This document shows, piece after piece, positions 457 through 994 of a stretch of DNA of 2,825 nt. The stretch's first letter is position 1. Each line of letters opens with the position of its first letter. The position numbers and the translations under genes are program-made. Source of the DNA: Escherichia coli (GTDB taxonomy: Bacteria > Pseudomonadota > Gammaproteobacteria > Enterobacterales > Enterobacteriaceae); NCBI RefSeq assembly GCF_003334255.1, contig NZ_QOWU01000130.1. One strand, written 5' to 3'. The notes under the pieces are model-generated. The model ran no database searches and had not been told where the DNA came from. It saw nothing but the letters and a program-made list of their open reading frames with translations.

Positions 457-486
457 GGGTGTCGGGGCGTAGCCCTGACCAGGTGG
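457..486. repeat. Left arm of a 30-bp perfect inverted repeat (GGGTGTCGGGGCGTAGCCCTGACCAGGTGG)
   Basis: Reverse complement of 965-994 equals 457-486 exactly (30/30); a 31st flanking pair (456 A / 995 T) also matches. Confidence 0.95.
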
Positions 487-519
487 TAATCGTATCGGCG
501 TGCGCGGTTATACGATTAC
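486..519. repeat. Hairpin-forming inverted repeat (GTAATCGTAT / ATACGATTAC, 10-bp perfect stem, 14-nt GC-rich loop)
   Basis: 486-495 is the exact reverse complement of 510-519; it directly abuts the left arm of the 30-bp inverted repeat. Confidence 0.8.
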
Positions 520-539
520 ACATCCTGTCCCGTCATCGG

Positions 540-600
540 AGTTGTTTTTGCGGTGTTCCTGCGGCAAATTGAGCGGGCATAGCAACACCTCAAAACAACT
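540..600. repeat. Imperfect inverted repeat (AGTTGTTTT / AAAACAACT, 9-bp stem, ~43-nt loop) upstream of the terminator hairpin
   Basis: 540-548 pairs with 592-600; the loop contains a TGCGG...TGCGG direct repeat. Confidence 0.6.
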
Positions 601-625
601 ATCATCAGGAAATTGACTTTGACGG

Positions 626-652
626 CCCCCTGACACAGGGGGATTTTTTTTT
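626..652 (+). terminator. Rho-independent terminator-like hairpin (CCCCCTG-aca-CAGGGGG followed by A then T9)
   Basis: 7-bp GC-rich stem 626-632/636-642, 3-nt loop, then a T9 run at 644-652 on the + strand. On the - strand the stem is not followed by a T run, so it is unidirectional. Confidence 0.6.
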
Positions 653-718
653 GCCTGTTATCTGCGGTTTTCACCGCGTCGCAGACCGCACACAATCGAA
701 ACGAAGTTGAGATTGTAT

Positions 719-743
719 AAGTGCGCACTTCGTGCACTTCGTG
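719..743. repeat. 12-bp perfect palindrome AAGTGCGCACTT (719-730) overlapping a tandem 9-mer CACTTCGTG x2 (726-743)
   Basis: Read directly; 719-730 is its own reverse complement. ACGAAGT at 701-707 is a further inverted partner of the ACTTCGT units. Confidence 0.8.
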
Positions 744-964
744 AGATTCCCCCCCCGACTGCCAGTTTGTCGATCGCGCGGAACGGCTGCGGCACGAAAA
801 CGGCAAAATGATTTGCCGTCCGGTTGCCAGATCTGCGCGCTTCCGTGGAGGGCGACACGGCGCAAAAACTGCCGATATTGCGCCAGCGTTCCGGTAACAC
901 AAACTCGCAGAAATCGGGACAGGATGTGGGAATGTCGGACCGCGCACGCGCACTCAGACATTCC

Positions 965-994
965 CCACCTGGTCAGGGCTACGCCCCGACACCC
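965..994. repeat. Right arm of the 30-bp perfect inverted repeat (CCACCTGGTCAGGGCTACGCCCCGACACCC)
   Basis: Exact reverse complement of 457-486; the arms enclose 478 bp (487-964). Confidence 0.95.

Follow-up and report, generated by a model that had tools for sequence, protein, structure and literature searches.

The perfect inverted repeat found around positions 456 to 995 very probably consists of two inversely oriented mimics of the oriT of I-complex plasmids (R64-like, MOBP, NikA/NikB). Here, the window is the whole stretch of DNA that was analysed, 2,825 nucleotides long, and it corresponds to a circular plasmid of 2748 bp that was read with an overlap of 77 bp (positions 1-77 equal 2749-2825). 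The grounds obtained for this reading are sequence identity, layout, genomic context, covariation, conserved architecture and natural inversions. The preliminary description of this DNA had offered three roles for the repeat, i.e. an invertible switch, a MITE-like insertion or a long-range stem in the single-stranded replication intermediate. None of these three identifies the arms as copies of an I-complex oriT.

The repeat itself was confirmed, with one base pair more than first described: 31 bp instead of 30 bp, with positions 456-486 pairing with 965-995. The statement that such a length is far beyond chance also holds, as in 100 shuffled versions of the plasmid the longest perfect repeat of this kind had a mean length of 11.7 bp and a maximum of 16 bp. 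The exact 31-mer was present twice in all four near-identical plasmids that were fetched. Around this 31-bp core, the arms remain imperfectly complementary as far as ~429/1022 on the outside and 532/915 on the inside, so that each of the two arms of the true unit measures ~100 bp.

Both arms were read against the reference points of the R64 oriT (IncI1; NikA/NikB relaxosome), namely its 44-bp core, its 17-bp NikA-binding repeats and its nick position. The R64 layout was complete in both arms: an outer block, a longer dyad repeat and then directly the nick region. In the left oriT copy (457-532, + strand, referred to as ‘K/Z-type’), the outer block lies in the left 31-bp perfect repeat (456-486). 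It is followed by the inner dyad repeat GTAATCGTAT...ATACGATTAC (486-519, + strand), which occupies the position of the NikA-binding repeats of R64, and by the nick region ACATCCTGTCCCG (520-532, + strand). The hairpin that had been noticed earlier at 486-519 is thus present and is this same repeat of the NikA-site type. The right oriT copy (915-994, - strand, pBuzz or ‘B/O’ type) is built in the same way, with its outer block in the right 31-bp repeat (965-995), the dyad-symmetric inner repeat GGGAATGTC...GACATTCCC (965-928, - strand) and again the nick region ACATCCTGTCCCG (927-915, - strand). Both nick regions are identical to that of R64.

The outer block of both arms is GGGTGTCGGGGCGNAGCCCTGACCAGGTGG, with an 8-bp hairpin inside, GTCGGGGC-GTA-GCCCTGAC, which in the left arm spans 461-479 (461-468 pairing with 472-479) and is mirrored in the right arm. 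The outer block of R64 differs at only two of 30 positions and contains the 8-bp hairpin as well, and also in R64 the dyad repeat abuts the nick region. Overall, the identity of the arms to R64 is 78-82%. The sequence of the inner repeat is different in R64, so it may be that neither copy is recognised by the NikA of R64. A further difference is that R64 has a single oriT copy, followed by nikA-nikB.

The R64-type nick region (…CATCCTG|TCCCG; ACATCCTG|TCCCG) was found in both arms, and ACATCCTGTCCCG was invariant in all 18 oriTs that were aligned. The R64 literature provides a spacing rule for the distance from dyad repeat to nick. In both arms, the dyad repeat ends 8 nt before the predicted nick. 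By analogy to R64 and RP4, the left oriT would be nicked on the + strand between G527 and T528, and the right oriT on the - strand between positions 920 and 919. Because the two copies are located on opposite strands, these predicted nicks face each other. The distance between them corresponds to an inner segment of 392 nt.

To place the arms in a genomic context, positions 420-1030 were compared to 72,556 plasmid records with a sensitive search. Matches were obtained in 3863 records, of which about half were large conjugative plasmids. At least 80% of the query was covered in only 20 records, and most of the others matched one arm only. In the conjugative plasmids that were checked, the arm match was found immediately upstream of the relaxase accessory and relaxase genes of MPF_I/MOBP systems, a position that is the oriT of I-complex plasmids. 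For example, a conjugative plasmid typed IncI1/B/O shows 96% identity to window positions 911-994 upstream of its relaxase genes, and the IncK2/Z plasmid L003 shows 91% identity to window positions 457-533 (92.5% to the left copy) directly upstream of its relaxase operon. The match in a plasmid typed IncI-gamma/K1 is likewise upstream of the nikA/relaxase genes. In R64, 13 bp separate the end of the homologous sequence from the start codon of nikA downstream. The thousands of matches in large plasmids had also suggested a single-strand promoter or priming element (Frpo/ssi-type) of a leading region; this idea was dropped, as the matches adjoin nikA/relaxase genes.

The two arms belong to two different specificity types. 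The closest relative of the left arm, with its inner repeat GTAATCGTAT…ATACGATTAC, is the oriT of a K2/Z plasmid (92.5%). Compared to this K2/Z oriT and to two sister plasmids, the left copy carries a deletion of 4 nt in the hairpin loop. The right arm, with the inner repeat GGGAATGTC…GACATTCCC, shows 97.5% identity to the conjugative plasmid L002, where the sequence lies upstream of a nikA homologue, and 96.2% identity to both oriTs of the small plasmid pBuzz. This right-arm type is also found upstream of a nikA homologue in p2_FT34. The labels ‘K/Z’ and ‘B/O’ are to be read loosely, since the GGGAATGTC type occurs in plasmids typed by MOB-suite as IncI1/B/O and as IncI-gamma/K1. The identity between the arms ends exactly at the start of the type-specific repeat. 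What is perfect over 31 bp is the outer block, which all I-complex oriTs have in common and which is conserved between the two oriT types.

In total, 18 distinct oriTs of four types were aligned (R64, K/Z, B/O and a fourth type, GCATTTGTC…GACAAATAC). The proposed hairpins were paired in 92.8% of the cells of this alignment, and in the case of the 8-bp hairpin of the outer block (helix 1) in 99.3%. In the long dyad repeat, compensatory double changes across the four types were detected in eight of 17 pairs. The observed covariation score was reached in none of 500 shuffles, and sliding the partner by 1-3 columns lowered the pairing to 30-48%. What is conserved is therefore the dyad symmetry inside each arm. 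Such a pattern agrees with an oriT hairpin that serves protein binding or termination, and not with pairing between the arms.

The arrangement has a known counterpart in pBuzz, a plasmid of 1982 bp from E. coli 838B that was described by Moran & Hall (Plasmid 2019;101:10-19). pBuzz has two inversely oriented oriTs without relaxase or accessory genes; a B/O plasmid in the same cell mobilises it at high efficiency, and other Inc types are represented among the oriTs of its rolling-circle relatives (PMC9282650, PMC11389934, PMC7448864, PMC8765060). pBuzz itself (NZ_MF156267.1, annotated under this name) was among the matches of the arm search. Like pBuzz, the window plasmid has a Rep_1 rolling-circle replication protein, no relaxase and two inverse I-complex oriTs downstream of rep with the predicted nicks directed inward, and its inner segment is homologous (86% over 256 bp). 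Several differences could be identified. The replicon is Col(MP18) in the window plasmid and ColpVC in pBuzz, and the Rep proteins are 73% identical. The first oriT follows rep after ~700 bp in the window plasmid, whereas in pBuzz it follows 4 bp after the rep stop. The window plasmid carries a 137-bp module, consisting of a hairpin and a terminator-like site, beside the left nick, and it has two oriT types instead of two oriTs of the same type. Altogether, the window plasmid belongs to the known pBuzz-type group, here with a heterotypic oriT pair.

Borrowing a relaxase through an oriT mimic is also seen in other small, non-conjugative plasmids, such as those of the pCERC7/NTP16 type and the staphylococcal mimics of the pWBG749 type (PMC9282650, PMC4652767, PMC11389934). 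In contrast to the window plasmid, plasmids of the pCERC7 type have a single oriT together with a nikA gene of their own. The staphylococcal pWBG749-type mimics use an oriT family that is unrelated to the I-complex oriT.

Regarding the coding content, rep (1575-2573, + strand) encodes the rolling-circle replication initiator (Pfam Rep_1, PF01446, E = 9e-86), and this is the only ORF of the plasmid with a family match. The earlier statement that there is no recombinase gene on the plasmid is thereby confirmed. For five ORFs within or beside the repeat region, NCBIfam returned no family at all, whether relaxase, NikA or recombinase, and thus no remnant of a NikA or relaxase was found among them. 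This includes an ORF of 48 amino acids (1014-1160) just outside the right arm, at the position equivalent to nikA, which has no NCBIfam family.

The near-identical plasmids are typed Col(MP18) by PLSDB. In both host strains of such plasmids that were checked, I-complex conjugative plasmids were co-resident, and in strain LZSFT34 the co-resident I-complex plasmid has a GGGAATGTC-type oriT upstream of a nikA homologue. When nine lineages with Rep proteins of 49-100% identity were compared, all nine showed the same layout: rep, oriT(+), inner segment, oriT(-). The oriT pairs showed six combinations: BO/BO, KZ/KZ, KZ/BO, BO/KZ, BO/X and KZ/X. The pair of the window plasmid is KZ/BO.

The relatives were also informative on how the two arms evolve with respect to each other. 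The loop base T470 (GCGTAGCCC) is a variant private to the window lineage, and it is the same in both arms. The two arms of L007 likewise have a private variant in common (GGGGTG), and so do those of pVCM01 (CCAGGCGG). In p11-0230.2 and in pBuzz, a loop variant specific to the respective plasmid is again found in both arms. When the arms were permuted among ten plasmids, p was ~1e-4, a value uncorrected for phylogeny. Private variants common to both arms point to gene conversion or recombination between the arms. We infer that this kind of exchange probably keeps the 31-bp block identical, and the recombination that homogenises the arms also appears to invert the inner segment occasionally. 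The type-specific part behaves differently from plasmid to plasmid: at the position with the outer flank CGGGCAGGTTGTCGAG and the inner flank TCATCGGAGTTG, the oriT is K/Z in the window plasmid and in pPM18, and B/O in L008. The same flanks thus enclose different oriT types, which means that the specificity repeat is swapped in the manner of a cassette while the blocks around it are conserved.

The inner segment between the predicted nicks (528-919) is homologous in the relatives and contains no ORF with a family match. Its part common to pBuzz covers window positions ~665-919. The additional 137-bp module adjoins the left nick, and it holds an imperfect hairpin (540-600, + strand) and an intrinsic-terminator-like hairpin followed by a T9 run (626-652, + strand). 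Both had been listed previously, the former as an inverted repeat and the latter as a terminator, and both were located again, as were the palindrome AAGTGCGCACTT at 719-730 and the C8 tract at 749-756. The 540-600 element does fold (z = -2.5 on the + strand and -3.3 on the - strand) and is absent from pBuzz. A stretch related to the module follows the single K/Z-type oriT of an unrelated 6.7-kb plasmid, and a similar hairpin with a T-run was seen after the oriT of L020.

In three natural relatives the segment was found in the other orientation. L007 (2225 bp), with a Rep 98.5% identical to that of the window plasmid, carries the inner segment of pBuzz at 100% identity, but reversed relative to rep. 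Inversion of the segment between the arms was also seen in pVCM01, with a backbone 99.5% identical to pBuzz, and in p11-0230.2. Flipping thus does take place among natural plasmids. To estimate how often, junction queries were carried out. In the pBuzz lineage, two inverted records were obtained against ~10 close relatives with the native junction. In the window lineage, the inverted-junction query gave 12 records at a coverage of at least 80%, of which 11 represent the other arm of ordinary plasmids in a reverse match; only L007 was truly inverted. The tally in this lineage is one inverted record against 12. The five sequences of the window lineage itself are all collinear, in one orientation. 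As the inner segment tolerates inversion in relatives, a strictly strand-specific essential role of this segment is argued against. Overall, the inversion looks like an occasional, rare recombination between inverted repeats of 80-100 bp and not like a regulated switch.

These inversions bear on two readings that give the flip a function. The first of these, which we regard as unlikely, builds on the oriT pair: the convergent oriTs would share a leading region, and RecA or the helper NikB would recombine the arms, flip the segment and so switch which helper-type oriT is coupled, on the strand that is transferred, to a strand-specific signal such as a priming site, a hairpin or a terminator. 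Here, the conserved outer and nick blocks would serve as recombination handles for a cassette-like swapping of specificity repeats from plasmid to plasmid. The second is an invertible switch, as in the preliminary description; in the form considered here, a recombinase acting in trans, either of the host (RecA/Xer) or the NikB of a helper, would flip 528-919 and thereby change a phenotype, for example which of the transferred strands bears a strand-specific priming signal or terminator. This claim has partial comparative support, as natural plasmids show the segment in either orientation relative to rep (the three relatives described above), and the private variants common to both arms point to ongoing exchange. 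Moreover, repeated oriTs reportedly recombine through NikB (Furuya & Komano 2003, cited in PMC4902927), and NikB may for this reason have mediated some inversions, although that report concerns tandem and not inverted copies. What did not stand is the regulatory part: the whole window gave no sigma-70 promoter-like site, the ORFs inside the segment have no family match and a recombinase gene is missing from the plasmid. Together with the rarity of the inverted forms and the single orientation in the window lineage, this makes a switch improbable.

A pairing of the two arms as a stem of ~100 bp in the single-stranded replication intermediate, where it would serve as or present a single-strand origin, is not supported by the data, and we give it very little credence. 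Rolling-circle plasmids need a single-strand origin; none was located on this plasmid, where the hairpins of the inner segment are only modestly above shuffles. The region does fold much better than its shuffled versions, whichever strand is taken (z = -12), and its minimum-energy structure contains the long-range stem. Such a strong fold is automatic for any inverted repeat. Against the stem, the arms are heterotypic in six of ten lineages and as such unable to pair over the central ~35 nt, and the compensatory changes maintain the hairpin within each arm and not the pairing between arms. In addition, the arm sequences occur singly, upstream of nikA, in large conjugative plasmids with theta replication, and an Rfam scan of the whole window gave no match at E <= 1. 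Any long-range stem is thus a by-product.

The reading of the unit as a MITE-like non-autonomous element with the 31-bp arms as terminal inverted repeats has a negligible probability: the repeats do bracket a short non-coding segment, and the whole unit also occurs without rep in ~9 large plasmids, but a target-site duplication is missing (flanks GTTGTCGA and TGCCAACG, as already described), the homology to relatives continues past both arms, the arms are accounted for as oriTs, and in 5426 complete E. coli genomes 857 of the 859 matching places were on plasmids, with the whole unit in only 10 genomes.

Reading the arms as a pair of oriT mimics leads to a possible course of mobilisation, deduced from the likeness to R64. 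In a cell that also contains an I-complex plasmid as helper, the NikA of this helper would bind the inner dyad repeat of one oriT copy. The helper relaxase NikB would then nick 8 nt downstream of the dyad repeat, within ACATCCTG|TCCCG, and the nicked strand would leave through the type IV secretion system of the helper (‘relaxase in trans’). As the copies are on opposite strands with the nicks directed inward, either strand could be launched, and from either oriT the 392-nt inner segment would be the leading end and hence the first DNA to enter the recipient. The action of NikA/NikB on these two copies and the range of helpers are predicted from sequence; the heterotypic inner repeats, one K/Z-like and one pBuzz or B/O-like, probably widen the range of helpers that can be used.

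For practical purposes, this plasmid is to be classed as one that I-complex helpers can mobilise, and these helpers are probably of two specificity types. More generally, very small cryptic plasmids without transfer genes can spread with an oriT that is copied from large conjugative plasmids. The mix-and-match oriT types, the shared private variants and the inversions bear on how such hitchhikers adapt to changing helpers. The homogenisation of the arms, the swapping of types and the natural inversion are minor extensions of the pBuzz picture, and Moran & Hall 2019 may already cover them.

A last element was identified between the right arm and rep. Upstream of rep, the block CGCGCG-TTCCTTGTATTTATACTTAAGGGATAA (~1303-1340) is conserved in all relatives, including those with a Rep of only 49% identity. 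The block resembles the nick region of pC194, and the site (1303-1345, + strand) is probably the double-strand origin. If so, the + strand would be the displaced strand.

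The entire two-oriT unit, together with ~230 bp past its right arm, was also present in the plasmid pMO17_54 (at 6001-6835), and the same was found in ~9 further plasmids with sizes of 131-156 kb. These large plasmids of IncF/IncX type hold the unit without any rep gene. In the case of these copies, the left arm is of the type of the IncI1 plasmid R64, and the right arm, whose nick region is the variant GTATCTTGTCCCG, belongs to another type again. A fourth oriT type, in which the inner repeat reads GCATTTGTC…GACAAATAC and contains a single C·A mismatch, was borne by three relatives, namely L008 (1236-1314), L009 and L010 (2730-2808).

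Near-identical copies of the window plasmid were seen alongside an I-complex conjugative plasmid in two strains, LZSFT34 and S1-KEN-04-A. The conjugative plasmids concerned, p2_FT34 and p1-S1-KEN-04-A respectively, are both IncI-gamma/K1-typed, MOBP and MPF_I. The oriT type of p2_FT34 is the one found in the right arm of the window. Just outside this arm, with its start 19 bp away, lies a candidate ORF of 48 amino acids (MKKFRVLLTVPEFVKQKIVG…; 1014-1160, + strand), which compared to R64 occupies the place of nikA relative to oriT. This ORF showed no match in NCBIfam.

Within the inner segment, the sequence adjoining the left nick (529-655) is a hairpin and terminator-like module. Its counterpart in L020, an unrelated 6.7-kb plasmid, is found at 1620-1770, following the single K/Z-type oriT of that plasmid, and the module is also present in L010; in the K2/Z conjugative plasmid, the oriT has no such module beside it. 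Additionally, a 59-bp stretch of the segment (676-734) recurs at 92-98% identity in non-coding DNA of unrelated small plasmids, these carriers being Col156/MOBQ plasmids of ~4 kb and plasmids of ~6.7 kb. This stretch may be a shared functional module, e.g. a priming signal.

Comparison of five near-identical plasmids showed length changes to be almost their sole differences. These changes concern a G-tract (69-76), a GTGC-repeat indel of 4 nt within the hairpin loop of the left oriT (497), a T-run (644), a 9-bp tandem copy of GCACTTCGT (725-733) and a C-tract (749-756), which is C8 in the window and C6 in the others.

The G8 tract is part of a stretch of ~297 bp (2717-2748 and 1-265), located just downstream of rep, that is missing from the close relative pPM18. 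Direct repeats of ~100 bp and 82-85% identity bracket this stretch (262-363 and 2617-2716), and inside each of them an inverted repeat and a terminator-like hairpin were identified. The stretch with its flanking repeats could be the result of a duplication with insertion; alternatively, the region could be a candidate single-strand origin region. Upstream of rep, the block CGCGCG-TTCCTTGTATTTATACTTAAGGGATAA (1303-1345) was kept in all relatives, even where the Rep proteins are 49% identical, and is probably the double-strand origin. An imperfect hairpin (1330-1368) is adjacent to this block.
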